In this document: in pieces, positions 7,701 through 44,217 of the stretch | How positions within the stretch are numbered: position 1 is the stretch's first letter | How the letters are laid out: each line of letters begins with the position of its first letter | NCBI GenBank assembly: GCA_036630325.1 | Contig: CP142729.1 | Location: 620,001-684,000 of the forward strand | Direction: 5' to 3' | DNA: 64,000 nt | From: Vairimorpha necatrix | Taxonomy: Eukaryota | Program-made: the position numbers and the translations under genes | The notes under the pieces: model-generated | Databases searched by the model: none | What the model saw: the letters and a program-made list of their open reading frames with translations, nothing else | Told to the model about the DNA's origin: nothing

Positions 7701-10012
7701 CAATAAGAACCTCCGTTCAAAACTTAATACCAAGAGTTATAATTTACATAATTTTAATTCGATTGTTTATCACTATAAAAAAAAAATATTAAAAATTAAA
7801 ATTTTTACTTTTAATTGATATTACTTTAATTCTATATTGTATTTTTAGACAATTATAAACTCATTCTAACATTTATAAATGACACATTATGGGTATTTTC
7901 TAATTCGCCTTTTAAAATGAAAAAAACCAAATAACTTAAATTTAAATGTTATGCATACATTGATCAATGGTATTATATTAGACTGTAATATTTGAATAAA
8001 AATAAAGAATAGATTGTAATTTTATTGACTGGAAATTAAAAAAAAAAAGTTTCTGAATCCATATTAATATTATTTAATACTATTTCACTGTTTTTTAGAT
8101 AACTACTAATATGTTCGAAAAAAATATTTTTTAGGTCAAACTATTTAATTGGTTTTCTCTTTTTAATCATCTTTATTTTTTAAATCGCATTTCGAAAAAA
8201 AAATTATCATAAAAAACTACTTGCAACAATAACTTTGATTTTCTTGAACATACAGCCCTGCAAGTCTATAAAAACTTCGATATTTACTATTTCTCATCTA
8301 AAAAAAAATTTTATTTGCCCTTTAAGACGGAATAATATATTTACTATTTTAGAGATGAAGATGAAAAGGGGGGTTTAAAAAAAAAACTTTTGTAAATTCA
8401 TACTACTTATAAAAAAATAGTTTTTTTTTGTTTTAGTAAAAAATTACGTTGTTAATTATGAATATCTTGAAGGTTTTTTACAATTATGTTTATACGAAGA
8501 TGTCCCCGAGTCTACTGCGAATTAGATAATTTATGATAAACAGATTGAGCGTGGCGATTTTCTTATTTTGATTGAAGGTAAAGAATATTTGGTTTTAGTG
8601 TCGCCATTTAATGAACAGAAACATGAATCTTAAGTACAATTTTGCGCTATATGCCGAAGACAAGTTTCGGACCGGAATTATAATAATTAAATGTGAGAAC
8701 AAGAGCGTCAAGGATACTATAAAAGAAATTGAGGAGAGTATAAAACAAGAATGTTCTCGTACCAATTATGACTCCCATTTATTATTTAACAGGACAGCGA
8801 AAACAATACAATTTTTGAAACAAATAATTAAAGAATTGAAAGAAATTTAAAAATAGGGAAGAAGTAATGTTTATTTCGAGATTATATATGATTGAATTTT
8901 TCATAATACATCGTTATTCTTTAATTGTATGATGGCATAAAGAATCCTCGTTGGGAACGAAATTTTCGCGATCGTCGCCTCCCATTCACGATTTATGTAA
9001 AAACTAATATATCAAAATACTTTAGTTTTTATGCAATTATTGAATGAAGTTATTTTTCTTTGAATAAATTTAGACGATCTTGGAATTGATACTAATGTCG
9101 AATCTCCTGGAGCAGAACCATTGCATAGTAACTTGAATGATATTATAATCATGTCGTAATCTCGGGTAAATGTCTGAAAGAAGTTGTTATTCTATAAGTG
9201 TACATATAAATGTTTTATTTATATTTAAAGTTAAATTTGTATGATCTCGCTTCGGTTTAAAGTATGTTGATCGTCTGTCTGTTTAATCGTTTCTTTTCAT
9301 TGAGTATGCCTTTCTTTAAAACTTTTATTTATAAAAAATATTTTACAAATTCACTTTTTTAAGCAATTGAAAAGGAAGAAATAATTCAAAATTTATTGTG
9401 AGATTTACTAAACATCAGTAATTTTTGCATTGAATTATATAATTCTATTTATATGATAGTATAAAATCATGCGATGAAATTATTTTGCCAAATTGTGGAA
9501 TCGGCAAACTTCAATCAGACGATGATAAGCTTATGATTAAAATAATAAACTATAAAGTTTAAGTTCCAATTACTTTGTGAAATTTTCTTATTCGTTAACC
9601 ACAGAAAATATTATCAAAAAAGTATGTTTTTATGAATTTTATGAAATTTTCGAAACTTGACACGTTTTGAAAAGAAAGGGAAAGCTACAAAGTAGTAGAG
9701 TTATTTTTCGATTAATAAATTGTGAGGATTAATTTCTGAGCAGAACAGGAGCGGCGGGAAATTACATATTTGTACATATTTTGTTGACCATGGGGGCATA
9801 AAACCAAGTGAAATAAGTAGTTTTTTAAAAAATTAAAGCTCTGAAGAAAATCGCAAAACAGAACTTATAAAGATGTTATCATAGAATATATCAAAAGAAT
9901 AAAACATAAAACTATGCATTTAATGAAATCTTTTTAATTTTAAAGCAGAAAAATACGTAAATGGAAATGATATTTCTTTTGAATTAGTGTTTGGACCTTT
10001 AAAAGGGATGAG

Positions 10013-10810
10013 GCGGTGCCCTTAGCACAGTGGTAGAATGCAATGCTTCCATTGAGCAATGGCTGGGTTCGATTCCCAGGGGCACCAAAATTGTTTCTAC
10101 TTTCTATGATGCAGTTGGAACAACTCAGATGATGAAAATGTCCACGATAATCATTAAGTTGATTCAATGAAACTTGTGTGTGTCCAGCCACAAGGGGATT
10201 AGCATCTAGTGTAGAAACGCACCTCAAGGCCTGAAAAACAGTATCCCCCTTTGGTGACTTAATGATACATAAAAGTATCTAATGGGTACGGCCTAGTTGA
10301 AGCCCATGGCTGGTGCACTCTAGAGTGGGATCCCAGAGCTAACTAAGAGACTAGACGAAGTAGGGCAATAGAAGGTCTCGTGGACCCTATCCTACATGAT
10401 TCTGTAACACGGTGGCCGAAACTAGTGGGAGACTGGTGGTCAACGCAGCCTAATAAAAACGCCGGGCTGGGGATGTGGTCGTGTAAGGAGCCGTGTGTGC
10501 AATACGGATAATTGTAGGGACCTTTGAGTCAGTACGATGATCTCTCTCCTCGGGTTATAGATAACCATGCCCGTTAAGTATATCCGCTGTGAGGTCACTC
10601 TGGACGCGATTTGAGGTATAAATGGAAAGTGTTCTCCTGGAGCCAAAGTCCAATGGATACGGCGGAGCTTGCTGCACCGGCAAGTGTATGGAGGGAGTTT
10701 TAGTGAGTAAGAATCCCACAGTACCAGTTGGATGAGGATCACACCCAAATCCCTCTGGTCCCTATGTAAGGTTTCTCCCTACCTCTTACTTGCAAGAAAA
10801 AAAAAAAAAA
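10013..10810 (+). mobile_element. tRNA-derived SINE with poly(A) tail and 15-bp TSD
   Basis: tRNA-like head at 10015-10087, GC-rich body, A14 tail at 10797-10810, TSD TTTAAAAGGGATGAG at 9998-10012 and 10811-10825. Confidence 0.9.
10015..10087 (+). ncRNA. tRNA-like SINE head (Gly-like A/B boxes), probably not a functional tRNA
   Basis: Acceptor stem GGTGCCC/GGGCACC-A, A box TAGCACAGTGG, T arm CTGGG-TTCGATT-CCCAG. The anticodon loop lacks U33. Confidence 0.75.
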
Positions 10811-11187
10811 TTTAAAAGGGATGAGATCGGATTGAGTCAAAGCATTGTTTAGAAACTATTGTCAAAAGTGTTAATTCTTGGGTTCAAACTAAGAACGAAA
10901 ATTTGATTATTTAAAGATATATAAAGGTTTTTGTGGTATTATGACCATATAACATCTATATATCCTATAGGATGTATTTTACAATTTTTAATTATTTTTC
11001 CTCCTTCTTAATTTTAAATTATTTTATTTTAAATCTATACAAAAAAGAAAATGAGTTAAAAGGAGAAAACAGTAAATTAAAGCTATAACAATAAATGTCG
11101 CGCGCGCGGGGCGCACGTGCGCCCAGCCCGCACACGGCCCAATTCCCGCTTTTTAAGCCATTTTTCATTTTTTTAAGGGTGCTTATG

Positions 11188-11272
11188 AAAAATGGCTCGC
11201 GCGGGGATCGAACCCTTCCTCTTAAAATTTGACCAGTTCGTTTCAGAATTTCTGACCGCTGAGCTAAACTCA
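11188..11272 (-). promoter_or_regulatory. tRNA-like Pol III internal promoter (A box, B box, T5 terminator) inside the Ginger element
   Basis: Minus strand reads TAGCTCAGCGGT ... GGGTTCGATCCCCGCGCGAGCCA-TTTTT. Confidence 0.65.
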
Positions 11273-11347
11273 GTTATAAAAAAACCTTAAAATATAAATA
11301 AGTTAAAAACAACACCATTTTAAAAAATATTTCATAACATCCCTCAA

Positions 11348-12628
11348 ATGGTCTTACCTGTGAAAAACTCGGAAGAATATAAAAATATTCTAGATATTAT
11401 TGTAGAAAACAAAGTCGTAAAAGATATTTCGAGGTTTTCTTTGGCGAGATTAAGGAAAAAGGCTGAACACTTTACAATTGTAGATAATCATCTTTACTTA
11501 AGAGGTATCGACAATCTACATTTAAAGGTTTTTGCACAAACGGATATTTGTGCGATGAAGTTAGAAATGCAAAAACTTCACGTAGATGGGCATTTAGGTC
11601 AGAATGCCCTATACCTAAAAAGTAAATGTTTATATTTTTCAATCCCAAGGGAATTGATACGTGATGTTGTACGTGAATGTAAAATTTGCGCTCAATGTCA
11701 GCCTTTGAAGACAAAGGAAAAAATGAAACATATTACAGCAGAATTTCCATGGGAACGCCTAATGATAGATCTTATTGATATGAGATCATACAAGGAGTTT
11801 AACGATGGGTATTGCTGGATATTATCTATTTTGGATGTATATTCAAAACTTGCCAGAACATATCCATTAAAAGGTAAGACAGCTGAGTGTGTTATAGAGT
11901 GTTTGGAGGATTTATTTGAACATTATGGTGTACCTGGGATCATTCAAAGTGATAATGGTAAGGAGTTTAGGAACAAATTGATGTATGATCTTGCATCAAA
12001 ATATAAAATCCTTCTAATAAACGGGAGACCTAGACATCCACAGGCACAGGGTCAGGTGGAACGGTTTAACCAAACAATCACAAGGTTATTATCAAAAAAA
12101 TTAATGGACGAAGAAACATCAGAACGAAGTGAAAGGTGGATTGATTGTCTAAAAAAGGTTACTAGTGTTTATAATCAAGCAGTTCATTCTGCGACTTCTT
12201 TTACTCCATTTGAGAAAATGTTTAACAGAGCTGGTTACAACACAGTAGTTCGTAAAAATTTAGAACCTGAGAATAAAGTGTCTTTAGAGTTAGATAGAGA
12301 AATATGTCCTGTGTCTGTTGATAATGAAATCGATTGTGTTAAAAAGGAAGAAAAATCTAAAGAAGACTGTGTATTTTCGAGTTACCAAAAAAAATACTTT
12401 GCACGAATGGATAGACGCGCGGTACACAATTCTATTTATGATTTTGAAGTAGGTGATACTGTTTTATTGAAAAAAGATTTTGATAATAATAAAAAAACTA
12501 AGAAAAAAAAACTTGAATCTTTCTATCATAAAGAGTCTATAGTAATAGAAATTTTATCTAACAATCGAGTAAAGTTAAATTTAGAAGGAAATGAAGTTAT
12601 AGTAGATTTAAATTTGATTAAAAAATAA
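11348..12628 (+). CDS. Retroviral-type integrase/transposase, 426 aa
   Basis: H..GH...C..C zinc finger; IDLID, SDNGKEF and GQVERFN catalytic DDE; uninterrupted ORF. Confidence 0.92.
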   Translation: MVLPVKNSEEYKNILDIIVENKVVKDISRFSLARLRKKAEHFTIVDNHLYLRGIDNLHLKVFAQTDICAMKLEMQKLHVDGHLGQNALYLKSKCLYFSIPRELIRDVVRECKICAQCQPLKTKEKMKHITAEFPWERLMIDLIDMRSYKEFNDGYCWILSILDVYSKLARTYPLKGKTAECVIECLEDLFEHYGVPGIIQSDNGKEFRNKLMYDLASKYKILLINGRPRHPQAQGQVERFNQTITRLLSKKLMDEETSERSERWIDCLKKVTSVYNQAVHSATSFTPFEKMFNRAGYNTVVRKNLEPENKVSLELDREICPVSVDNEIDCVKKEEKSKEDCVFSSYQKKYFARMDRRAVHNSIYDFEVGDTVLLKKDFDNNKKTKKKKLESFYHKESIVIEILSNNRVKLNLEGNEVIVDLNLIKK

Positions 12629-13358
12629 AAAATTAGTTTATATATTTTGTCAGTACTTTTACTTATAAGGATTCCCGAACCCAACATATTATCTTGAGTT
12701 TAAAAAGATTCCAATATCAAAAATATTCCCATGCAAAAAAAAACTTCTGTAAATCTAAACAATTTAATTATCTTTTTAAAGTAAAACAAATCTATTATTT
12801 TTTATTCCTTAATTTTCCTTCGGAAAAAAAAAATTGTTCTCACTGCGCTCGAACCCGGCAAAAACTTCGTTTTTGTGCGGGCTGGGCGCAAGTGCGCCCT
12901 GGGCGCTTGACAATAAATATTATAAAAGCCTGCCAGGGACAGACGGGCAAACGTATAGTTCTTTAGAGTATTACTTTAGAACAAGTGCATCCCTGTGTAG
13001 CACGCCAGATTTCTAAAAAATTATTTTAAAGATGTCACAAACTTTAGAGACATAATAATATCATTTATCTATGCAATGACATGTTTGCTTATTGAAAAAT
13101 CTAAAAACAAAACTACAAGCCTAAGAAATGAAAAAAATTTATTTCTTTTTTAAAATTCTGTTTGACATAATATTATATGATCTTATTAAATATAATTATG
13201 AAAATATAGAATATCTTTTGATAAGAAAAACTTGTTAGAAGGACGAAAGAAGAAGAATAACTACTACTTCTTAAAATATATAAATTTCAATATTTTTATG
13301 TATACGATCTATATAATTTAATACATGAATGTTGTTTTTAATTTTCATTTAGTGTATA

Positions 13359-16091
13359 TGTTGCAGTAAATGTATACATTCCAGGCAATGTATACATTTA
13401 CTAGTCAATGCATATATTCGCTAAAATTCGTTGTTAAAGTATTCATTATAACTGAAATGAACACATTACCTAGTGGATGTATGCATATACGGGCTGCTAC
13501 TAGTCAAAGTGTTCACTCACTATTAAAATGAACATTTTAACTAGTGAATGCATGCATTATCTAGTAAATGTATGCAGAGTTACTAACCAGCTGCAGTAAA
13601 TTCGTTAATTAATAAATTTTAGAATAAAAAATAGTTTAAACAAGTTTTTTACAAGCACAAAATCATGATCGCCGTTCTAGATTTAGGCTAGAAGATAAAT
13701 GTTGAATCGAGAAATTGAAATTAGAACACACACAATGATTAAGTTTAAACAGTAAAACTAGGTTATATTAAATAAAAATTTTAGTTTAAATTGAAACACA
13801 TAATAATTTAGAACAAAAGTTTGAACAACATAAATAGATTATAATATTAAATAAAATATAAAAAATGATTAATAATTGACTCGATGATGTTTCCACTAAA
13901 GCTAATTAAAATATTTATTAGAAAAGATATAAATATAAAGCAAAAAATACAATATAATGGAAAGAGTAATTTCTAACATAAAAAAAGTAAAATTAGTATT
14001 AAAACGTTATTTGTTTGCACAATTTAAATTTTCATGACATTTGTAGTTGCACGATTTGCTTTCTTTGAGGCAGGCACATCTTTTTGTTGCGCATTTTGTT
14101 TTGCACTGGCATTTGAAGAATCCCTGTCCGCTACCTTTCGAGTGTTTGGTAGCTATATTACGCAATTTCAATTCAATTGCATTGATTTCAATATCATTTA
14201 GCGTTAATATACTTTTGGGAGACACGCTAAATTGAGATCTGGAATATAATCCTTTTAAAATCCTATTACGTGTTCCAATTTGAAAGTAATCATCATCAGT
14301 TTTAGTTAATAAACATACTAGTACTGCACGTAAATCTCCCCGTCCTCTATCAACTTCCGGTACATTAATTCTAACTGTCATTCCCATCTCCGCCGAGGGA
14401 TGCGAAGCGTCAGAAATTAGTTTTATGCGCTTAGCTTGCTTGTTCAAGTTTTCTTTTGCTTCTGCTCGGGCATAATTGATGCGTGATTGCGCCGTACAAC
14501 TATCGCATAATTTAATGGATTCCGAATTGAGTAAAATGTCACATCCATCACATTTTCGGGTCTCGGAGGCAGGCGGTACACTACCATGTTCCGTGTCATC
14601 CAGTAGCAATTCCTTGACGCCTTCACCAAAGATTATCTGATTCTAGATCTAGATCCTCTTCCTCAATAACTTCAACTTGTGGAATCTCCTGGACACTTTC
14701 TTCATTACAGTTAATATTTTTAAGAATATTTTCCAAATCTTCTTCACTGTTTATACTGTTTAATACCTCGTGTGGTAGCCAAGAAGAGGAGAGGCCGACC
14801 TTGGCGGGCTGTCCAAATATTGCCTCGTAAGGACTTCGCTTTATACCAGCGTTCAGAGCTCGATTTTTCATAAACTGCACATAACTTAGTCCTCTACTCT
14901 AATTACTAGTTTGATTATCTTGCATCCATGCGGTTAAAATATTCTCAATATCTTGATTCGCACGCTCCACACAGCCTTGAGACTGGCTGTGGCGCGGCTT
15001 CCCATGCACAATTTTTAATTCAGGCCACAAACCTTTAAAATCATCAATGACGGGGTTAACAAATTCTCAGCCATTGTCCGATTGCAAAATTGATGTGCCC
15101 CAAATAGTAAAAAAATTTAGAGGAGTTGATCAGCAACTTCATATGCTGTTTTTTATTAAAGGCTCTAAGAATGATAAACTTTGTTAAGTGGTCCTGGTAT
15201 ACCGATATAAATTTATAACAATCATCTAGCTGTGATTGGAAGTCAATTAAATCTACATGACACCTTGAATTAAAATGAGAAAACACCATTGGATTAATAC
15301 CAAGCCTTTCTTTTAATTCGCCCTTTTTTAAGGCCACTTCACAATTATTTAAAAATGTTTGAATATCTTGTGCTGTTATATGCTTAAAGCGAAGGTTAAG
15401 CTCCTTTTTCATTCTGTCTCGCCCTACATGTCCAATTGATAAATGAGTTTCATATAAAACTTCAAACAATTTTTCAACAGAAACATAATACAGCACTTTT
15501 TCATCTGATATTGGTGCAATTAGTTTATCCACATTGCCCACATATACTGTATCATAATGTTTTAGCAACAAGAGGTAACGGTTTTCTTTTTTCTGAGCAG
15601 ATTTAACATCACTTATTAGTTGAGTATATCTTTCCGTAGTCATACGAAAGCCGTTAGCTTTTTGTGGAGTATTCTTAATATTACCGGTAGAATTTATCTT
15701 TCATTGCTTGTTTATCCATTTTATATTTATAGCTAAAAATAATTAAAAATTATTAATTTCTATGGACACATATAATTTAAATAACTCACTTACCATCAAA
15801 CAATCAGCCAGTGTGTATTCTCTCAAACAGCACAGATTGAGCAACAGCCAACAGCACACAGTGCATCACGAATAAAGAGGTTAGATTTAAGGGTTTGCCG
15901 GCAAATTTAACGATTTAACCTTCGGATTTAATACACAACACTTTGACTAGAAGCAACCCGTGAATGCATACATCCACTAGGTAATGTGTTTATTTCAGTC
16001 ACAATGAATACTTTAACTACGAATTTTAGCGAATATATGCATTGACTAGTAAATATATACATTGCCTGAGATGTACACTTTAACTGTAACA
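13359..16091 (-). mobile_element. Ginger2/KRBA2-SCAND3-like integrase DNA transposon, decayed
   Basis: ~155-bp TIRs with TGT...ACA ends and probable 4-bp TSD TATA/CATA. Fragmented integrase (HLSIGH, VDLIDFQ, YQDHLTKF, SQGCVERAN) with a C-terminal Cys-rich domain. Confidence 0.85.
14007..15719 (-). pseudogene. Integrase-like transposase with CXC-like C-terminus, frameshifted
   Basis: ORFs 15056-15643, 14623-14880 and 14007-14609; C-terminus CQCKTKCATKRCAC...C...C. Confidence 0.85.
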
Positions 16092-16135
16092 CATACAAAA
16101 CACCTAAGAGTGCAGACGACGTAGTCAGAATACTG

Positions 16136-22246: not shown

Positions 22247-25200
22247 TGTTGAGTCCCGAAGACATGTCTGTATTAAATTGCATACTTTATTAGAATAAGT
22301 TTTCTTAAATAGTTTCAGTGAAACATACGTTACAGATAATAGAAGATAACTGGTTTACGATGACTGAAACTGTCTGGTGTTTGAAACAAGATAGTACTTG
22401 TTTCATGTGTTACAACGCCCCCTTGCTTAGTTAAAGACCCGTATTGAGTTTGATGTGTGCTTTGTTGAGTCGGAAATGCTTATTTTTAGATTTCACGATG
22501 TAAGCATCCGGAGGAGCTTTCTTGACTATTCTATAGCCGAAAGTCCACTCGGGCTTGAGTTTATCTGAAACAGCTTCTTTATAGATTAACACGGGATCAT
22601 CAATTTGTAACTCTGTCTTAATGTCTCTTTTCCCTTGCTCTATTTCTTTTTCGTACGCTTTTAAATATTTGTCTCGTTCTCGGATAAGTACCCTCCTGTC
22701 AATCGGTAAATTGGCTTTGCCGCATTTGCGATCCACTTCTAATACTGGTAGGTAACCGTATTTAAACATGAACGGTGTTGTTTTGATAGCCCGATTATAA
22801 GAGAGATTTACAGCCAGTGTGGCATCGGCCACTTTAGTTTCCCATTTTATCTTTCCGAAGTTAGATAGTTTTTTTAATTTCCTCCATAGTGTCTGGTTTG
22901 TTCTCTCCACGCATCCCACCGTCTGATGGTGAGCAGGAGAAGCGAACTTCCACTTTATGTTATGGCTCGCGGCAAAATTGCTTGTTTTGCTATTCTTAAA
23001 TTCTAAACCGACGTCAGAGAGTATTCTACGGGGATTTCCGTGTTTGCCTATGATAAGAGATTTGATGCACTTAATTATATTTTCCGGAGTTTTTTTAGAT
23101 AATACTTTAGTTTCTATCCATTTTGTAAAGTGGTCAACGGCGACGAAAATAAATTTATTCCCAGTTCTTGAGGGAATTCTTCCAAGCAGATCTACTTCCC
23201 ATAATTCATTTGGCTGTGGAAAAGAAATTACCCTATTCTTAGTTTTAACTAGAGGTCCTCCAGCTTTTAGACAAATGCTACATGTTTTGATGTAATTTTC
23301 AATCTCTTTAAACATCCCCTCCCATTTGTACCTTTTCGTAATTACATACTTCATAGCGGCAGAAGATGCGTGTCCAAGCGATAAATGATACTCTTTTATA
23401 ATTTCTCGTCTCAGTTCTGGCGTCGTATCACTTAATGTTTTGTTAGATCGCAGAGAACTAATGTTAATTCTGCTCATTGCGTCGGCTTTATTGTCTTCTC
23501 CTTTTATATATTCTACTTTGAAGGAATACTCTTGCAATTTTAATGACCATCTTAGCAGACGGCTGCTGGGTTTTTTTGATTCCCAAAGATATGCCAACGC
23601 CTTGTGATCCGTTCGCACTACGAATTCTTTTCCCAACAAGTAGTGTCTGTAGTTATCTATGCCTTTGACTAATGCTAAGAGTTCTTTGTCCGTTACTGAA
23701 TAATTTTGTTGAGCCTTATCTAATTCCTTACTAAATGCGGAAATCATTTTTTCTTTACCATCATTGTCAACCTGAGAAAGTATTGCTCCAATTGCGATAT
23801 CAGAGGCGTCTGTTGTTAACACAAATTTTCTGTTCACGTCAGGCTGTTGTCGTTCGAGTGCAGAAGATAAAATCGTTTTGATTTGTTTAAATGCAAGCTT
23901 TTCTGTTTCTGTATATTCAATTTGCTTCTGTGAGTTCTTTTTCTCTCCACCCACAAGCTTAAATAAGGGACGGGCCATGGTTGCGTAATCCCTTATAAAC
24001 TCTCTGCAGCAATTTACTATGCCCAAAAATGATCGTAATTTGGTAACTGCCTCGGGCAATGGGAACTTTTTAATAGCTTCTATTTTGGCAGGGTCTGGCC
24101 GAACTGTGTTATGTCCAATAATGACTCCTAAGATTTTGATTTCTGTTTTCATAAATTTACATTTAGCTTTATTCAAGCTTATACAAGCTCTCTTCAGTTT
24201 CCTCATGACTATGTCCACATGTTGTCCGTGTTCTTCTTCGTTTCTGGAATATATTATGATATCATCAAGATAAGGCATTACGAACTTATATCGTTCATCT
24301 TCAAAGATTTCATCCATTATCCTCTGAAATGTTGCTGGTGCATTACAGAGACCAAAGGGCATTCTATTGAATTCATATAGTCCCCCCTCCAGGAAAATGC
24401 AGTCTTTTCTTTATCATTTTCATCTACTTCTACTTGATAGTAACCAGAGGTTGCGTCTAGCGTGGTAAAAATGAGCGCACCTGCAAGATTGTCGACAATT
24501 TCGTCAATTCGAGGAATTGGATATCTGTCCTTTACTGTGATTTTGTTTAAAGGACGATAATCTATACACATCCGTAATGTTCCGTCTGGTTTAGGAACTG
24601 CCACAATTTGGCTTCGCCACGGACTCTTACTTTTCCTTATAATTTTAAGCCTAAGATTTTTTTCTATTTCTTTGTCAATTTCTTCACATAAATGTAGTGG
24701 AACTCTTCCTCCTTTTGAGCAAATAGGCACCTTTGACGATATTTCAATCCTGTGTTTACCTTTAGTACACACGTTTAACTCAGAGATTTCCGTTTGAAAA
24801 ATATCACTATATTTTGAAGCTATCTGTTCGCTTGTGAGAGAATGAAGGCAAGTGGGCTCTTTAGTCCTCTTATGTCTTGACATTAGTTTTCGTGTAGTAT
24901 TAATTAGGAGATCCGGATATTTAGTAATTGCGTCCAAACCTAGTATTATATAAGGTGGCCCGTTTGCTACTATATATGGGCTAATGCGGATTGAACCGCC
25001 CGTCTTTTTATCTAAAACGATTTCGTTTGCTCGATTTAATATTTTTATTTCTGTCCCACATGCCGACCTTATTCTAGTATTTCCTCTGTTTTTTGTTGTG
25101 ATATACTCCATTTTTTCTTACAGGATTCGTTTATTATTAATACATCGGCTCCTGTGTCAACCAAACACCAGATTGGCTTTGAGTTAAGTAAGAATATATG

Positions 25201-30281: not shown

Positions 30282-31040
30282 TTAAATAGTTTTAGTTTCG
30301 GATCTGAAACAATCATGTTTCAGATCATTATGATTTGTTTCATCTTTCAGTTTTAGTCTGATTATTGGTGTGTGCAACACAGCCGGTAACACTCTCCCCT
30401 CCTTAGAACAAGGCTTCACTTCCTGGGAAGATGCAACGTTCACCAATTTATCGTAGAACTTTTCATTCACAAGACTTAGGGGTTCAAAGGTTCTTCTAGA
30501 TGTTCTTTTTATATTAATGAATGATCCTATGTTCTTTTTATTGAAAGGTCTCTTCATGTTCCTATATTCAGTTGCGACTAAGATTTCCATTTTATGCATA
30601 TTAGCAAGAGGACAACTTGGTTTTATGTGTTCGTTTTTCATAGAATCTTTACTGAGCATGTTCCTGCTCTGATTATCCAATCTTTCATTTCTATATAATG
30701 TATAGTAAGACATTATGAACTTTTTACGCGGCTTATTAAATATATTAAATATTATTCTTTTGAGTTTTATTCTAATGTTATTCAACTCACAGTGCAGAAC
30801 CATAAATAGTAACTTCCAGGTCAGTATTGGCCTCATACCTTCATCTATTTTAGATATTATTTCGATAAGCACGATCTGCACGATCGCTACTTCCTCGCTC
30901 ACCACGCTTTTATTCACACATAAAAATGTTTGTTTCTTCACTTCGTGCTCGTAAATTTCTTTTCCAGAAGAGTTAGATAGTATCGTTTTCCCGGGTCGAG
31001 TTGGTGGTTCAATTTCGCTACACTTAAGTATGTAGAACAT
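30282..31040 (-). CDS. Unknown ORF (252 aa) overlapping the gag end and running into the 3' LTR
   Basis: Open frame only; no recognisable motif. Confidence 0.3.
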   Translation of the reverse strand: MFYILKCSEIEPPTRPGKTILSNSSGKEIYEHEVKKQTFLCVNKSVVSEEVAIVQIVLIEIISKIDEGMRPILTWKLLFMVLHCELNNIRIKLKRIIFNIFNKPRKKFIMSYYTLYRNERLDNQSRNMLSKDSMKNEHIKPSCPLANMHKMEILVATEYRNMKRPFNKKNIGSFINIKRTSRRTFEPLSLVNEKFYDKLVNVASSQEVKPCSKEGRVLPAVLHTPIIRLKLKDETNHNDLKHDCFRSETKTI

Positions 31041-32344
31041 TCTTTAATCACGGGGGATTGACCTACTTCTTTAGTCCGTGTTTCCTTTACTTTTGTGAGT
31101 TCATTGTATAGGCGCACACCATCGTCTCTTTCCTTTTCGATCGAACTATGTGCGTCCTTGGTGCTCGTATATTCGTCACTCTCCACGCTTTTATTTGCTC
31201 GTTCAATGTTTAGATTTTTTCTATCATTCTCGAGAAAGTTATTTTGCTGGCCATCGAATTGCTTGTTAATCGAAGTACTCGTCTCGGAAAACCTCAAACT
31301 TCCATACAGAAGCGACGTCTGAGCTGTTTCTGCACTTGCCCACTTTTTAATCCGCCCATCTTCTTGTATAGACATTGTTATATCTATACTCTGTGGAATA
31401 GTTTGATTAAAATGTACTTCTTTTACCTTTCTTAGTTTCTTTCTGCCAACAAAATTGCTTTCGATAAATGGGTTGGACTCCCCCGAGTCCAAACGCGTTC
31501 TTACTACGTCGCGGTCGATGGACCCTAAGATCGTAGTATCGTTCGTGTCTTTTGACACTGGATCTGCCTCGATTAAAAACACCTTTTTCCCTTCGTGTTT
31601 CTCGCAGTCTTTAAATAAGTGTTCGCCCCCACACTTATAACATACTAACTTTCTTGGACTCTCTCTTGTCCTTGTAGTATATGGCCTTGAAGTCCTTGCT
31701 TCCCTTGGCCTATTCTGTTCAGGTCTCTGCCTTGAACTCTCAATAAATTTATGATTTCTCTCATAAATCTTTAGTACAACGTCCCATGACGTTGCCTCTT
31801 CCACCTTTTCTTTAAGTGACGGTGGGAAATATCTAGCCAACTCCTCCGTAATTTCAGACACGCTAACTCCTGCTTTCTTGTTAAGCTTCATTAGTTCGTA
31901 TATAAAGTTTTCAATTTTCATATTTACAGGTCCAGAGTATAGTCTCTTATAAAGCATTTTAATGGGATTAATTCCCTCCCGGAATTCTTCTTTCCCATAT
32001 TTTGTTAGAAATTTCTGTTTGAATTCCATATATCCTTCCACCTCGTCTTCAATTACAGCCTCATACCATAGGAGAGCTGATTCCCCTAAGTATCTCTTAA
32101 TGTAATTGAGCAGTTTTATATCATTCCATTCTCCCTCGAGGTATTTAAATTGATTAATCCAGACCCATGCATTCTCGCCTTGGGTACCGTTGAATTTCAC
32201 CATTGTGTTAGTAGATATCCCTAATTTTTCTAGTAGGTGGCCCAATTCGTTGGATTTCGAATAGTTGTCGCCAGTGTTACCAGAAGGAGAGCTGGTTATT
32301 GAAGAAGGCTTTTTATTAGAAGAAGAACTATATTTATTTGGCAT
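30938..32344 (-). CDS. gag: Gag with CCHC knuckle, protease remnant and unknown tail (468 aa)
   Basis: CYKCGGEHLFKDC knuckle and LDSGES motif; the ORF starts inside the 5' LTR. Confidence 0.8.
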   Translation of the reverse strand: MPNKYSSSSNKKPSSITSSPSGNTGDNYSKSNELGHLLEKLGISTNTMVKFNGTQGENAWVWINQFKYLEGEWNDIKLLNYIKRYLGESALLWYEAVIEDEVEGYMEFKQKFLTKYGKEEFREGINPIKMLYKRLYSGPVNMKIENFIYELMKLNKKAGVSVSEITEELARYFPPSLKEKVEEATSWDVVLKIYERNHKFIESSRQRPEQNRPREARTSRPYTTRTRESPRKLVCYKCGGEHLFKDCEKHEGKKVFLIEADPVSKDTNDTTILGSIDRDVVRTRLDSGESNPFIESNFVGRKKLRKVKEVHFNQTIPQSIDITMSIQEDGRIKKWASAETAQTSLLYGSLRFSETSTSINKQFDGQQNNFLENDRKNLNIERANKSVESDEYTSTKDAHSSIEKERDDGVRLYNELTKVKETRTKEVGQSPVIKECSTYLSVAKLNHQLDPGKRYYLTLLEKKFTSTK

Positions 32345-32932
32345 ATTTATTCTATTTAAGATTTCTTAAATAGTTTTAGTTTCGGATCTGAAACAATCAT
32401 GTTTCAGATCATTATGATTTGTTTCATCTTTCAGTTTTAGTCTGATTATTGGTGTGTGCAACACAGCCGGTAACAATATCCACATCCATTTCTGTTGGTG
32501 AGATATTTTCCTTTGCCTACACAATATTCCATTTGCGTTTGCTTATGTCTTTAATTCTCTTTAAGCCAATTGGAACGGATATGTATGCATCGTTTCCTTT
32601 TATTCTTCTTGCTGACCATGTACGTCCTTTCACCTCTATTTTTGTGAGTGTAAATTATATGCTTTATGCTTTTTGCAATTCCCCGCCCTTTGTTTATTTT
32701 TATTACACGAGTGTTGGTTTTGTAATGAGTTTTTAGAATTATGATATGCTGCAATTGTTCTTATGTGTTCACTTTGGTAGTTCATTTTGCAAACCCTCTT
32801 GATTTTCACATTTGCCTTGAGTATTTACAGGGGGTTGCATTTTTATAGTCCAATTTTGCATTTTTATAGTTCATTTTTTAAAAAACAAATTTGATATATA
32901 ACGAATCATTATAAAAATATGTATAAAATGAT

Positions 32933-36058: not shown

Positions 36059-39000
36059 TTATGAGCCAATTAGTTCATGTAGAACTACATTTTTAGTATT
36101 GCTTCCTCTTGTCCCCAACTTGACTCTCAAGTTTTCACTCTTTTTCACTCTTGACAAAGCTACGTATAATTGACCATGAGAAAATACATCCTCAGGCAAA
36201 TACGCTCCCACTTTGTCGAAAGACTGTCCCTGTGCTTTATGTATTGTCATCGCATATGACAATACCACAGGAAACTGTCTTCTTTTGGGGTATAAATGGA
36301 AGAAGAGTGTCACTTGGCATCATGTCTATCTTTGGTATAACAGCAAGGGTGCCCCTTCCCCTTCCTGTAATTATCTCCCCCAAGATGTAATTATCTCTGA
36401 GACTTTTTATCTTAAATCTGGTCCCATTTAATAATCCATTCTTAGGATCAATGTTTCTCAATAATATCACAATTGCCCCTGTCTTCAGTACTAATTTATG
36501 TGGAGGTAGTCCTGATGGTTGCTGCATATTCAAAAACTCAAGAGGAAATCTCAGTTGTTCGTCGATATCCTCTGATTCTATAGCATCAGAACTCACATAT
36601 ACCCTAGAAGATCCTTTGAGGAGGTTTAGCACTTTTGTATTCAATTCATTGGCATGTTCATTTTTGCTTGTTAAGATAATCTTATCAAACAAAGAATCAT
36701 CACCTGCTTCAATTTTGGTTGTTCCAAAAATGCTATCGACTATGTCTTCTTCTTCGAGATACTTCTTGGGTATCTCCACATATCCTTCACTATCTCTATT
36801 CTGTCCCTCGCCTATATCTAATAACCACTTATTAAACTCAACTTGATTAAGAGATCTCATATTAGTTTCTAGCTTCAGTACACAGACGTGTAGCCAAAGT
36901 TTTGAACTAATTAGTGAGTTCTCGATGACATCATTTGGGGTACCCTTAATTACAATGGTTGATGTTTGTCTAAAATCACCACCCAATAATAGAGTTTTCC
37001 CTCCAAAGATATCATCATTGTCACAGAGTCTTTTAAGCACCTCATCTATTGCGTCCAATGCATGTTTTGACATCATCGAAACTTCATCTATCAGCAATAA
37101 TGAGGCCTTTATTATTTTTTCTGCCTCTGGAGTATTTCTTTTCAATCTAGATACGCTGGTCTCTGTCAAGGGGACAGGAAGTTTCATGCAGCTATGCATT
37201 GTTCTTCCATCCTTTAATAGATCTGCAGCAATTCCTGTAGTGGCCATCTGTATGAAGATTTTTTATTCTTACTTAGATATTCGATCAGGACATTGTATAG
37301 ATAGGTCTTTCCTGATCCTGCTGGTCCATCTAAAAAGAATAAATTTCCCCTTTTATCTATACTATCTGTTATTTTATTAATTGCATTTCTCTGTTTTTCG
37401 TTTAAAGAGGATATCATCTGATCTAGATCATGTTCAATGCCAGAGACTTTTCTTTCTTTCTAGATATAGTTAATCGGCTCATCTAAACCCAGTGCATTTA
37501 GACTCCATCCATGAGCATTAACTATATCTTTTAATCTACTTAATATTTCGTCTCTACTATTCTGATCTAGATCTTCAGACATATCTTCAAGATACTTCTC
37601 AAAGAGTTCTTTGGTATTTTTTGGCTTATTAAAAGCACAAATATATCCAAACAATGCTCTTATTATTGCTGGGGATTCGGTTGCTACTGCCTCATCCAAA
37701 GCCCTTCCCCATTCTTTGTCATCTTGAAGAAGTCCTCTTTCTTCCACCGCTTTTTCGAAAGAACTGTAAACTACACCATTTACAGTTCTCAAATCCTCAT
37801 ATGATTTAGCCCCCTTTACATTGATCAAATGGACTCTGAGGCTAAATCTTTCCTTCTCTGTAGGAGATACAGAATAAAGTCTAGTAATTATCTTGCTGTA
37901 CTTATTCTTTCTCCTTATCCATTCTCCCCTTTTATATGTATAGTGATAGGGTATCTCACTATACGAAAACTGATGTGCTCCTTCATCAACTTCATTCAAC
38001 TTGAAGTAGGCTAAAAGAGAAGTCTGTCTAAGATCGGACAATCTAACAGCTTCCTCTTCTCTGCCTTCTTCGAAAGTGATCAATTGTTCTTGTGGAAGAT
38101 GCACAGGAAGTCTATAGATCTTATGAGATCTTCCATGCATCTTGTATTCCATTAATCTCCAGGTTGCCTCTGGTGCTGAGACATATCTGGAATTCACAAA
38201 ATGATCAATTTCATTGTTGTCAGTTATTCTCATTTCAGCACAATCAAATCCCTAGTAAATATACTTGAAAATATACTTTACCGACTTAATAGAAGTACAA
38301 ACTTCTACATTAATGTGACAATTGTATTTTTCAAGCAGATAAGCATTATAAGGGACTACATTGACATTGGTAACAATGTTGCCCCTTACATTGTACTCGG
38401 CCCCTCTAGATCGTCTGTACTCAGGATATCCGTCTTTATTGATCCTTGTTTCAGTATTATGTTCCTTAGGATATTCCTTAGTGCAGAGACCATTTTCCAT
38501 ACATGGACTTGTCAAGTTACTTAGTCCACATGGTCCATATGTTTTGTTACACAGGTGTGTAACATCTCATTGTCCATGGGTGATGGTATTTCTGCACTCA
38601 CATACTTATCTATTCTTTCTTCATCCCGAATCTTATCCTTTAGCATTATCAATATGTGAGCATGAGGAAGTCCACGTTTTTGGAACTCAATAGAATAGAC
38701 ATGAGCCACGACTTCCCCGAACACTCTTCCTACCAAAATCTCCTCCATCATACTTTTTAATTTCATGTTGAAGACCTTTGCTACCAAATCTGGTCTATCA
38801 ACTGCTGTTTGTCCTTCAAAAAGATTTTCCTTGATCTCCTTCCAGTTTGGATCGCAAGTCATAGTAATAAAAAGATCGGGCTTGCCGAAACTTCTTACAA
38901 TTGACATTGCATCATGATATCTCTCTCGCATATTTCTCGGAGATCCTTGGAAGCTTGATGGTAAAATTACAGGCTTAGCAGTACTTTCTGATCCATTGTT

Positions 39001-40974
39001 CACATAATCTACTAAGCCTTTGTAAAGATCTACCCTCAACTTCTTCTGATTTAATGGTACATGACCGTTTGGAACCCGCATTGAAAAATTCAAAAAAAGG
39101 GAAAAATAAAAAAATTATTATAAAGGGACTTAACGATTTATTTTAAATAATGACAGAAGACAATTTATCCGGTGATTTGGGAAATTTGGAAAGCCCAGTG
39201 AAACTGTAAATGGTACTCATAGTGTTCTTCTTTGTTTATGTTGATATCGAATATCTCTTATAGAAACGAGCCAAAACCAACTAAATTATATGGTGTTGTG
39301 ACTCAGAATCGTTAGAGGTTACAGCATTTATACATTGTTTCTTGGTACTGTGCTCCATCACTTTGCTTAGATAATGTGGCATCATATGCTACCCATTGAT
39401 TATAGATCATAATAGAAACAGGTTATACATTTTCTTGTGTTACCTCAAGGAAAAGCAGTATTTATACTAGTTACAGAAACGAGCAAGGCGCACGCAGATT
39501 CAGCATCAAATGTTTCCAAAATAAACTTTTCTTTATATTCCATGTATGCATACATTTCATCACTAAAAACCTCATCTGCTTCAACAAACATTGTTTTTGC
39601 TAATTTTGCCATTTTTTTAAAGGGGGGTCCTTAAAAATTTCAATGCGGGTTCCAAACGGTCATGTACCGATTTAATTTTATGAAGTTGGAGTTATTTGCT
39701 TCAACTTGTAGATATGAATCTACAATCCATTGTTGAAATAACTTTCCTCCATAAAGTAAAGGATTGAACTTATCTTTTCTTATAGATATCTATGCTATTT
39801 TATATTGCAGCAAAGATACCTTCTGTGCCTCTACAAGATAAGATTGAGTCCTCAAATTTGCATTCCATCCAGCCTCCCCATGTGGATAGAATAGAGTATA
39901 TGCCATTGGATCTAGATGGGGACTTAAAATATCCAAATGTAAATTATCAGAATTGAGACCCTTACTATATACTTTGATGTCCCTTTAAATGGTGATTCTC
40001 CATTTGGATCAGTAAAAATCATTGCGATTTCACTTGTAGAGGGAGCATTATAACTTCTCTGATCCCTTTCTAAATTTTTATTAAAAACCATTGTGATGTC
40101 TTTAACTTCCTTTCCCATCTCCTTTTGCTCATTTATTACTTCTGACATATTCTTGTATGCTCTAGAATATGGATTGGCCAATCTTATAAATCCATCTAAT
40201 TTGCTCATGATATTAATATCACAATTTCTATTAGAAGGATTCATCATTCTCTGAGAATTTGCCATATCACTATCTACTACATATAATTGAGCATACTTCT
40301 TTGGTGCATTAGAATCCATATTATTCACATTATACGTATTATGATATACTTGACCATGTATCTTAAATACATATGGACCATTAGACACAGTTTCTATTTT
40401 CGCACCAAGAGAAGCAAAAGAAAGAGCAGCATTGTAAGATCTAATATTTTCTCTGAAGTTTTTTGAATCTTTATCTTTTCAAATGAAAAAATTCCTTATG
40501 TCCTCTGGGAAGTCTCTTGTTCTTTGTAACTTGACTTTACCAAAATGACAGCAGCTTTTGTATAATCCATTACTGCTTGCTTCTCCAGCAAAATGTAATG
40601 CACCACAAAAGCCACATTCTTCTTTCAAATCTCCACAATAATGTTCAGCATAGTTTCTGCTTGTGATACTACATGCTACATCTAATCTTTCCGTAAGAGC
40701 TTCTAATATTCTGTTATCTTTTAAGTCATCTAATTCTTCTTTGTTGTTTATTGGATTGCTTAGTGCTTTGTTGTCGCTAGAGAAACTGAATATAGAATTC
40801 CTTTTTTTGTTTCTCTAGCATTTGTTTTTTTATTTTTTGGATTATATACAGAGGTGTTGGCCTCATAGAAAATAACATTGTTATTTTCTGTATTACTACA
40901 AATCCCCTGAGAGATAGTAACAGTTGCTTTAAGTTGCTTATCAAATCGTTGTTTGCTTGATTTTTCATAAACAT
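36059..40974 (-). pseudogene. RepHel transposase
   Basis: PDLFITMTC, EFQKRGLPHAHILI (HUH) and YIFKY; GPAGSGKT, IDEVSM, GDFRQ, TIHKAQGQS and HGQLYVALSRV. Several frameshifts and a MITE insertion. Confidence 0.93.
39056..39668 (-). mobile_element. Merlin-type non-autonomous element (613 bp) inside the Helitron
   Basis: Perfect ~31-bp TIR GGTACATGACCGTTTGGAACCCGCATTGAAA and 8-bp TSD GATTTAAT. Confidence 0.88.
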
Positions 40975-41554
40975 AAGAGGGGTGGAGAAAAAAATTTTAT
41001 TTATAGTTTTTGAAATTCCATTGGGGAAGAAGAAAACAAAAAGGAGAATACGATTTTTATAAATAGAATTGATATTAGTGTAAATCTTATTTAATTGAGT
41101 TTGTTAGTCAGTTGATAAATTTCTAATGTTTGTTTCTTGTTTTGATTTTTGATTTTCCATTTCTGGTAGGAAGAATTAAAAAGGAGCAAATGTGATTTTT
41201 AGAAATTAAGTATATTATTGAACCAACATTGCAGTGTTGAAGTTAATTCAGAAGCAAATATAAATTCAAATGAGTTAATTTCACACATTAGCAACCAATT
41301 TTTTAAAAGTTGTGTCACATTGTTTTGTTTTCACTTTCTAAAAGGAAGAAATTAAAAATGAGAAAATCGTATTTCTTATTATTTCAAAAATTATTTATAA
41401 ATAAAATGTAAATAATGTAAGTGGTTCAAAATTGTCTATAAAATACAATTTAAGTATTCAAACTCATTTTTAGATCAAAATTAGCAATTTTATTTTTTAC
41501 CATTTTTTATATTTTAGGGGTAAAAAATTAAATAAAATTCTTTTATATATATGA

Positions 41555-42079
41555 CTAGCGTATGCTTTCCCGTTTTGAAAACGGGATCTAAATGTTTAGT
41601 TTTTTAATATTTATTTCCCCTTTTAATTTCGTTAAGTTTCCATTTTGGGATGAATGAATTTGAAAAGGAAAAACATGATTTTGAAAAATACTTTTTAGTA
41701 ACATATAAGGAGTAAACTTGATCTAAAAACATTTAATAATTATAATGAGATACTTTTAGGATTTTCTAAGCTCAATTTTTGACACTTATATTCAACTTAT
41801 TTTTGGTACATGTTTTTGTGAATTTTTTCGTAGAAGGGTCAAATAAATTCTAAAAAACGATTCTGACGATATTTTGGAACTGAGTTTTACAAAAATAATA
41901 ATATGAATTAAAATGCATTAATATATAATATACGCACTCACAATTATCAAATTAATACATTAAATCTATATATGATATTATATTAACGTAAAAGGCTTAA
42001 AATGTATCGTTTAGATTTTACAAAACCACAAAAAAGAGGGGTAAAAAATTAAAATAAAATTCTTTTATATATATGATGA
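41555..42079 (-). mobile_element. Non-autonomous Helitron, unit 2
   Basis: Hairpin CCCGTTTT-C-AAAACGGG plus CTAG at the 3' end; same 5' TCATATATATAAAAGAATTTTATT terminus as the full element. Confidence 0.8.
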
Positions 42080-44217
42080 CTATCGTATGCTTTCCCGTTT
42101 TGAAAACGGGATATAAATGTTTTGTTTCATAATATGTCTTGCCTCGGTAAATTTTGGTAAGTTTCCATTTGACATAATTGAATTTGACAGAGTATGACAT
42201 GATTATTAGAAATGTTTTTTAGTGTTATAGAAGGAGTAAAGTTGAGTTAAAAACACTTATGAGTCTCATTGAAATGGTTCCGGGATTTTCTAAGCTCAAT
42301 TTTTGACACTTATGTTCAACTTTTTCTTTAGTTGATATTTTTTGAATTTTTTCTAGAAGGGTTAAATAAATTCTAAAAAACGATTCTGATGATATTTTGG
42401 AACTGAGTTTTCTAAAAATAATAAATAGAATAAAAATGAATTAATATATAGTATACGCCGTTAAAATTATCAAATTAAAGCATTGAGTTTAAATTTGTTG
42501 TACGTAAAACTGTCATTGGAAACATGGGGCTATTTATTTACTGAATTTATAGTCCAAATGTCACATGTCAAATATCTTGTGTCGAATGTCATTTGATAAA
42601 TAATTGGATGACATTTGACATTTATACTTTCAACAAAATTTGATATTACAATAACATAATAAGCCATAATAAGAAGTTTAAAGTTTACAAAACCACATAA
42701 AATAGGGGTAAAAATTTAATAAAATTCTTTTATACAGTCCGTTGCATGATCTTAAGACACCCCCATTTTTCGATTATACTAGCGTGTTTAATGGCTTAAA
42801 CATCACAATAAAATCATTTTTTCAAGTATTTGCACCTTTTAAACCTTTTTAATTAAATAATTTTTGATGAAACCACTTGCATTGGACTGCACTCGTTTTT
42901 TATCGAAATTAGGTGTTGCATAATCTTAAGACAGTTTTCGTTTTGGAGGAAAAAGTTACCTCCAAAAAAGTTTAAGAAAAGCCTATTTTATTTGCCCTTA
43001 ATGAGCAAAGGTTTGCCACTGACTGATTTAGAAAAATCCATGATAATATATATGACCAAGGAAAAAAATCAATTTCTCAAATAAGTAAAGATTTAAAGAG
43101 ATCTAGAACAGTAATCGGCAATTTTTTAAAAAATCCTGCTATTTATGGAGTTAAAAGATTTACTGGAAGACCAAAAAAGCTTTCACTAAGAACAAGAGCA
43201 AGAGTAATTAAACTTGCTCGAGGAAAAAACAAAACAGCAAATTTTATTAAAGGACAACTAGAACTTAAGGTGCATAAATGTACAATATTAAGAGTATTAA
43301 AAAACGAAGAAAAGTTGACAAGAAGAAAAATAAAACGAAGGCAGTATTTAACAAAGCCTCATAAAAAAACAGAATCAGGGTTTCAGGCAAATATGAAGAT
43401 CTAGAAGAAGGATGGAAAAATGTAATATTTTCAATTGAAAAAAGTTAAATTTGGACGGTCCAGATGGATTTTTCTACTGTTGGGCTAGTTTAAATATTAA
43501 AAAAGTAGTCTATTCGCGCAGAGCCATGGGCGGACCGTCGGTTATGATTTGGGGCTGTTTTAATTACAGCGAGAAATCGGAATTGGCGATTTTTGAAGGA
43601 AATATAGACAGTAATAAATATTAAGACATACTTGATGTTTTTTTATTCCCTTTATTATTGAACAGAATCTTGTGGATCCTATTTTTCAGCAGGATAATGC
43701 AAGAGCACATGTTTCAAAATCAACAAAAAAACTGGTTTGTAAACAATATTATTGAGAGAATGTTCTGTCCTTCTTTTCTCGGGATTTAAATCCGATTGAA
43801 AATCTTTGGGGAGAACTTCCCAGAATGGTTTATGATGATGGAAAGGTGTATGATGATATTGATTCATTAAAAAAATCAATCAACGAAAACTGGCATATAT
43901 AAGTCAAAGATATTGTCAAAAGATAGTAGATTCTATGGAAAAGAAACTTACAATAGTTTTAAATAACGATGGAGGCTCAACAAAATATTAACCCTTTTAT
44001 ATTCTAAATTGTCTTAAGATTATGCAACACCTAATTTCGATAAAAAACGAGTGCAGTCCAATGCAAGTGGTTTCCTCATAAATTATTTAATTAAAAAGGT
44101 TTAAAAGGTGCAAATACTTGAAAAAATGATTTTATTGTGATGTTTAAGCCATTAAACACGCTAGTATAATCGAAAAATGGGGGTGTCTTAAGATTATGCA
44201 ACGGACTGTATATATGA
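42080..44217 (-). mobile_element. Non-autonomous Helitron, unit 3 (contains a Tc1 insertion)
   Basis: Diverged direct repeat of unit 2; 5' TC at 44217 preceded by A. Confidence 0.75.
42735..44208 (+). mobile_element. Tc1/Tc3-like transposon with ~200-bp IR-DR TIRs, transposase disrupted (43001-43991)
   Basis: TA TSD, CAGTCCG ends, internal direct repeat GTTGCAT.ATCTTAAGACA; FQQDNA and LNPIENLWG motifs. Confidence 0.92.

Follow-up and report, generated by a model that had tools for sequence, protein, structure and literature searches.

A retroposed SINE copy at 10013-10810

We analysed a 64,000-nucleotide stretch of the genome of the microsporidian Vairimorpha necatrix (GCA_036630325.1, contig CP142729.1, positions 620,001 to 684,000), hereafter the window, in which all positions are counted from the first letter. 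At 10013-10810 on the forward strand lies an insert of 798 bp, tail included, which is a copy of a short interspersed nuclear element (SINE) and belongs to a real, long-lived multi-copy family with subfamilies. We consider it fairly probable that the insert is a fairly recent copy of a family of about 0.8 kb that is resident in a microsporidian genome of the Nosema/Vairimorpha type.

The insert is bounded by a 15-bp target-site duplication, TTTAAAAGGGATGAG, whose copies at 9998-10012 and 10811-10825 are identical at 15 of 15 positions. Because this is the only perfect direct repeat of at least 15 nt within 9500-11300, and because it stands exactly at both edges of a compositionally distinct block, it is not a chance repeat. 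At its 3' end the insert carries a tail of 14 uninterrupted A residues (10797-10810), read directly from the sequence.

The 5' end is formed by a tRNA-like head. ARAGORN called a tRNA-Met(CAT) at 10015-10087 on the forward strand, its only tRNA call in the 64 kb, and the Rfam tRNA model (RF00005) matched 10016-10086 over its full length (model positions 1-71) with a borderline 29.5 bits, the gathering score being 29. Four non-standard pairs are marked in the Rfam alignment of the head; judged by eye, the acceptor stem (GGTGCCC/GGGCACC, 7 bp) and the 5-bp T stem are perfect. Both internal promoter elements of RNA polymerase III (Pol III) match the consensus motifs: the A box TAGCACAGTGG at 10023-10033 is an exact match to TRGCNNAGTGG (3 matches in the window, 0.31 expected), and the B box GGTTCGATTCC at 10066-10076 is an exact match to GGTTCGANNCC (2 matches, 0.07 expected). 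A functional tRNA gene was rejected as an explanation of the head, given the borderline score, the four non-standard pairs, the lack of a T run after the head and its fusion to a body of 709 nt that is repeated together with it.

That tRNA-unrelated body occupies 10088-10796 on the forward strand and is non-coding. Every one of the six frames of 10013-10810 is broken by many stops, no Pfam family was found for open reading frames (ORFs) inside the insert, and the 112-aa frame at 10443-10778 on the reverse strand found no relatives as a protein-database query. Rfam returned nothing for the body and nothing besides the tRNA for the insert as a whole; a mascRNA-like match in the insert was rejected, since its 26.6 bits lie below the gathering score of 42.5. 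No internal repeats were found in 10088-10796, and the folding of the insert was not exceptional (the sense strand had z = -1.1, the antisense strand z = -0.3). No second copy of the SINE was found in the 64-kb window, nor any match to its 3' end elsewhere in it. An earlier note on this DNA, made from the letters alone, had described a retroposed, tRNA-derived and A-tailed SINE with A and B boxes, a non-coding body of about 710 bp, an A14 tail and a perfect 15-bp duplication starting with TTTAAAA; each of these features was found at the positions given there.

A multi-copy family in public sequencing runs

Contigs of four public sequencing runs, X1 to X4, were aligned on 9600-11200 at a likeness of at least 80%. 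X2 is a bat-gut metagenome, and X1, X2 and X3 belong to three studies. The number of contigs aligned on the SINE was 289 in X1, 21 in X2 and 499 in X3, with only four in X4, each of 151 nt and of 80-92% likeness. Of the many public runs in which the SINE was found, the first three have the best shares of its sampled 31-letter words, 0.52 in X1, 0.51 in X2 and 0.47 in X3; only about half of the words were found because the copy in the window departs from the family majority. Two RNA runs held 0.04 of the words, and small shares also occurred in freshwater, bovine, soil, root and sediment metagenomes and in runs of further organisms; we draw no claim on habitat or expression from these figures. 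Three short stretches of the SINE, used as exact patterns, gave 0 matches each in collections of metagenome, genome and viral contigs.

The contigs spread over a wide range of identity. In the classes of at least 99%, 95-99%, 90-95% and below 90%, X1 had 50, 61, 68 and 110 contigs and X3 had 186, 117, 85 and 111. In both runs the cover is unbroken over 10032-10787, and on reaching the A tail it drops to 0 (X1) or by a factor of more than 1000 (X3); the body is repeated whole in X1, X2 and X3. Upstream, dissimilar sequence starts just before 10015 in X1 (four contigs, with mutually different flanks) and before 10011 in X3, so that the 5' end of the family agrees with the start that the duplication sets at 10013. 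The edges of family contigs thus lie no more than 2 nt from 10013, and on the other side the contigs reach no further than the A tail. A SINE is recognised as a dispersed family with common ends and differing flanks, and this is what the public runs contain, the common 5' end lying at 10011-10015. Two contigs of X3 begin at 10337 after unrelated AT-rich sequence, which indicates that 5'-truncated copies of the family exist as well.

A small Pol III RNA joined at its 3' side to an unrelated RNA with an A tail, with a duplication around both, is also the layout of known chimeric retrogenes, in which the reverse transcriptase of a long interspersed nuclear element (LINE) switches templates. The insert would then be a one-off pseudogene, made when the enzyme passed from a polyadenylated RNA to a tRNA. 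We regard this as very improbable. The joint between head and body (10087/10088) is bridged by diverged contigs with 38-49 differences in about 345 nt (records 2 and 3 of X1, record 9 of X2), and the complete unit of 0.8 kb recurs at a depth of hundreds of contigs. The joint thus goes back to the ancestor of the family and did not arise in one isolated event. In contigs that precede 10088 and 10061 the heads are variant or decayed, mostly by G>A and C>T changes, and a variant of 30 nt is shared unchanged by X1 and X3.

In X1 the mean summed depth is about 520 over the SINE and about 5 for a single copy. Summed contig depth is not a copy number, and the ratio suggests a family of about a hundred copies as an order of magnitude only. 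At about 100 copies in a genome of 10-20 Mb, one copy per 64 kb would be unsurprising. As X1 may be close to the source sample, independent support for the family comes from X2 and X3, that is, from two studies.

Composition and CpG content

At 0.477, the G+C content of 10013-10796 exceeds that of its left flank (0.259 over 2 kb), its right flank (0.229 over 258 bp) and the window as a whole (0.317). The insert is also depleted in CpG, and its observed/expected ratio is below that of the gypsy, integrase and Tc1 genes of the window (0.71-1.11); only the Helitron of the window is alike (0.32-0.54). We rejected CpG depletion as proof of an animal origin. The Helitron is as depleted, and the passages of PMC12449221 on methylation report that transposable elements are hypermethylated in several microsporidia, so the loss of CpG in the SINE need not be foreign.

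Flanking DNA and the adjoining transposon

The ORF at 11324-12628 on the forward strand, 500 bp to the right of the SINE, encodes an integrase only (zinc-binding H2C2 plus rve). Its named relatives, among the better matches, come only from Nosema granulosis and Enteropsectra breve, and the related proteins are 390-450 aa long and lie on contigs of 1.4-1.9 kb. The ORF is contained in a compact element of 1.84 kb, 11084-12924, with G+C-rich terminal inverted repeats at 11084-11134 and 12874-12924 (82% over 51 nt), which starts about 260 bp to the right of the SINE. The element looks like a small, Ginger-like DNA transposon of the integrase type and may be specific to microsporidia. Its 5' region holds a tRNA-like fragment on the reverse strand (11190-11275) with a perfect B box, GGTTCGATCCC, at 11204-11214 on the same strand and an A-box-like TAGCTCAGCGG, followed by TTTTT; the fragment is repeated in X1 and X3, and neither ARAGORN nor Rfam made a tRNA call for it.

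A retrotransposon gene of the window has a similar set of relatives. The gypsy gag-pol at 53158-56922 on the reverse strand is an unbroken frame of 1254 aa with protease, reverse transcriptase, RNase H and integrase, and the element is possibly still active. Its pol region is 62-69% identical to proteins of Nosema granulosis and Vairimorpha necatrix, the closest named matches, followed among named matches by Enteropsectra, Pancytospora, Pseudoloma and Nematocida; animal matches are more distant. The kinship of these genes marks the flanks of the SINE as microsporidian.

A perfect duplication means that both flanks formed one locus before the insertion. Since the right flank reaches the microsporidian-type transposon after 260 bp, the SINE sits in parasite DNA. 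The same facts bear on the possibility that a host repeat was misjoined into a parasite contig by assembly or contamination. No listed run contig bridges either junction of the copy in the window, as a misjoin would have it. In X1 the bins 9870-9977 and 10788-10895 are without cover, and such a hole in the cover proves nothing. A misjoin cannot produce 15 identical bp at precisely the two ends of an insert with an A tail, and the duplication ties both flanks to the one locus that meets the transposon; we therefore hold an artefact to be highly unlikely.

Residence in the parasite or origin in the host

A SINE located in parasite DNA may belong to a family of the parasite or to one of its host. 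Several observations from the public runs speak for the parasite. In X1 a contig of depth 5.5 matches the left flank 9600-9837 without any difference, and the diverged single SINE contigs of that run are listed at depths of 3.0-6.5. The right-flank repeat at about 10950-11057 has contigs in X1, X2 and X3, with a variant, 10999 T>C, common to all three, and the terminal repeat of the neighbouring transposon (11112-11200) is covered in X1 and X3. In X3, contigs of 717-1736 nt that join parts of the SINE to unrelated flanks have depths of 60-482, an order of magnitude also found in the right-flank bins 10788-10895 (204-295). The length of the SINE and the estimated copy number of its family also agree with those of long fungal SINEs, and a small SINE fraction is tabulated for Nosema bombycis (both compared below). 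One genome that carries both the SINE family and the flank repeats is the simplest reading of these data, for which the evidence is moderate.

An alternative is that the family belongs to an arthropod host, that SINE RNA or DNA of the host entered the parasite and was retroposed there, and that the copies in the runs are those of the host, the samples holding both organisms. Such an origin would account for the G+C content of 48% within flanks of 23-26%, for the CpG ratio of 0.54, for the single copy in 64 kb and for the presence of the SINE in a bat-gut metagenome, and in Nosema bombycis transposons are documented to have been exchanged with the host, in the passages of PMC3614468 on piggyBac and of PMC4038834 on Lep1 Helitrons. 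Against it, repeats of the microsporidian right flank are present in X1, X2 and X3 alike, in X1 the contig with the exact flank has a depth (5.5) like that of the individual diverged contigs of the SINE (3.0-6.5), and the contigs of X3 that join SINE and flank are similar in depth to the flank bins. The decayed, AT-shifted heads indicate a long stay in an AT-rich genome, and the loss of CpG may stem from the methylation of transposable elements that PMC12449221 describes in several microsporidia. We consider a host family unlikely. We give a comparably low probability to a family shared by both partners, in which a Pol III retroposon of the host would have crossed over, kept its GC-rich, CpG-poor sequence and been amplified by a LINE of the parasite.

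Several points count against a recent copy of a resident, Pol III-driven family. The composition of the SINE is foreign to its flanks (48% versus 23-26% G+C), as the earlier note had said, and CpG is depleted, with 24 observed where 44 +/- 5 are expected (o/e, the observed/expected ratio, 0.54). The argument that SINE and flanks share a genome is built on few contig depths, and occurrence in a bat gut fits insect prey as well as the parasites of that prey. Family copies were seen in run contigs, not in the source assembly, of which the 64-kb window has one copy, and this copy itself is probably absent from the samples of X1, X2 and X3. On the sense strand there is one run of at least four T against five runs of at least four A, an avoidance that is not significant (P = 0.29 and 0.17); the internal TTTT at 10698-10701 could stop some Pol III transcripts prematurely, and the next run of at least four T, past the tail, is a T5 at 10928-10932. 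Finally, no non-LTR (long terminal repeat) reverse transcriptase, and thus no LINE of any type, was found among 257 stop-to-stop ORF queries of the window (255 listed). The earlier note had reported a LINE with a restriction-like endonuclease (RLE-type) in the window, which is not confirmed by these queries.

Residence in the parasite rather than in the host is what we infer, and we give an origin in the host the lower probability. The earlier note had raised acquisition from an animal host as a possibility; the data lean to a family living in the parasite genome.

Age of the copy in the window

The copy in the window differs from the majority base of X1 and X3, and of X2 where it is covered, at 10300, 10334, 10451, 10506, 10510, 10542 and 10716, and at several further sites in single runs. 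The two copies of the duplication and the tail together amount to 44 unchanged bases, which by our arithmetic bound the divergence since insertion to less than about 7%. The earlier note had called the element young. The perfect duplication and tail agree with this, but with at least seven differences from the family majority the copy is young only in a relative sense.

A possible route of insertion

SINEs are retroposed by Pol III transcription followed by target-primed reverse transcription, for which the enzyme is provided in trans by a LINE. On this model, Pol III would start at the A and B boxes of the head of the present element and read through the body and the A tail. The reverse transcriptase and endonuclease of a LINE would then nick an AT-rich target and copy the RNA from its A tail, and a staggered second nick would yield the 15-bp duplication.

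As the duplication begins with TTT, the first nick would fall between 9997 and 9998, and the bottom-strand primer would end in TTTTAAA-3' and not in a T run. An endonuclease of the apurinic/apyrimidinic (APE) type, as proposed in the earlier note, is plausible; the predicted primer differs from the classical TTTT-3' of L1-type sites. Alternatively, a duplication of 12 bp could have been extended by three T derived from the U-tail of the Pol III transcript, which would restore a classical TTT|AAAA site; this needs a coincidence and is less likely. As for possible LINE partners, LINEs make up 1.42% of the genome of Nosema bombycis, of which Dong-R4 accounts for 1.04% and others for 0.38% (PMC3614468 Table 2).

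Other mobile elements in the window

The window is a field of mobile elements. Besides the gypsy element with the unbroken frame there are Ty3/gypsy sequences at 22431-25117 and 45266-46303, both on the reverse strand, a Helitron, and remnants of transposases of the Tc1/Tc3, Merlin/IS1595 and MULE types. The Helitron, at 36062-39114 on the reverse strand, consists of Helitron_like_N and PIF1 helicase pieces and shows the strongest CpG depletion of the window, which is of interest given the exchange of Helitrons between Lepidoptera and Nosema bombycis reported in the passages of PMC4038834 on these elements.

To the right of the integrase-type element, an inverted repeat pair at 13353-13513 and 15937-16097 (161 nt, 90% identical) brackets about 2.7 kb. 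The ORFs between the repeats lie on the reverse strand, with a weak integrase zinc-finger match at 15056-15700, and the pair may bound another inverted-repeat element. At 41516-42720, exact direct repeats of 15-31 nt are clustered at a spacing of about 523 nt, which suggests a tandem duplication or a satellite-like unit. The ORF at 30938-32365 on the reverse strand (475 aa) has no Pfam family; with its CCHC zinc knuckle, CYKCGGEHLFKDC, it resembles a gag protein from a diverged LTR retrotransposon.

Implications

In literature listings, the opening parts of abstracts and passages of genome papers, we found no described microsporidian SINE family, only totals or zeros. The word SINE occurs 0 times in the text passages of PMC4202319 and PMC12449221, and 0 SINEs are given for Microsporidia sp. 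MB in the corresponding passage of PMC11585130. Within the literature searched, the element is the first anatomically clear microsporidian SINE that we found, real but conceptually ordinary.

Should the family be resident, an active retroposon system driven by Pol III would operate in microsporidia of the Nosema/Vairimorpha type, which implies that the reduced genome of a parasite contains a LINE able to act in trans. Clean insertions flanked by perfect duplications, where related samples lack them, could serve to type strains of insect pathogens by presence or absence. In the case of a family shared with the host, non-autonomous retroposons would join the DNA transposons and Helitrons reported to cross between insects and Nosema; a transfer from the host, if true, would make this the first SINE for which a move from host to parasite is demonstrated in microsporidia.

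Comparison with known SINEs

The tRNA-derived, A-tailed SINEs of animals, such as Bm1 of the silkworm and B2 and ID of rodents, have A and B boxes, an A-rich tail and duplications of 7-20 bp in AT-rich targets. They are 100-450 bp long and occur in 10^4-10^6 copies. In comparison, the element described here is about twice as long, and its family seems to comprise about 10^2 copies.

In the genus Nosema, the RepeatMasker table of N. bombycis lists 28,669 bp of SINEs, or 0.18% of the genome (PMC3614468 Table 2). This is a Nosema-clade genome with a small SINE fraction beside its LINEs, and the approximately 29 kb, given as a total only, would correspond to a few dozen copies of 0.8 kb.

According to the overview of fungal SINEs in PMC5063351, the length of a SINE is usually 100-600 bp, and some fungal SINEs reach 700-900 bp with 40-160 copies. 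The present element, at 784 bp plus tail, lies outside the usual range and within that of several fungal SINEs. The earlier note had called it long for a SINE, which is right with respect to the usual range; among fungi its length is ordinary. The same source describes AfuSINE2 of Aspergillus fumigatus, which shares with our element a tRNA-related head, Pol III boxes, an extended tRNA-unrelated region, duplications and a low copy number. AfuSINE2 differs in being 140-493 bp long with duplications of 4-14 bp, whereas the present SINE is 784 bp long without its poly(A) tail and has a duplication of 15 bp, and one AfuSINE2 ends in ACT repeats common to a LINE of the Tad clade (PMC5063351).

Close counterparts are the long, low-copy elements listed in PMC5063351 for Magnaporthe, mgsr1 (800 bp, about 40 copies) and the tRNA-derived MgSINE (472 bp, about 100 copies), and for powdery mildew, Egr1 (700 bp, about 50 copies) and egh1/EGH24 (900 bp). 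These belong to ascomycetes, whereas the present SINE is microsporidian and has an A14 tail and a 15-bp duplication. Compared by description, they and the present SINE are alike: all are non-coding retroposons with a length of 0.5-0.9 kb, and their copies number from tens to the low hundreds in a genome of the fungal type; MgSINE in addition has a head derived from a tRNA.

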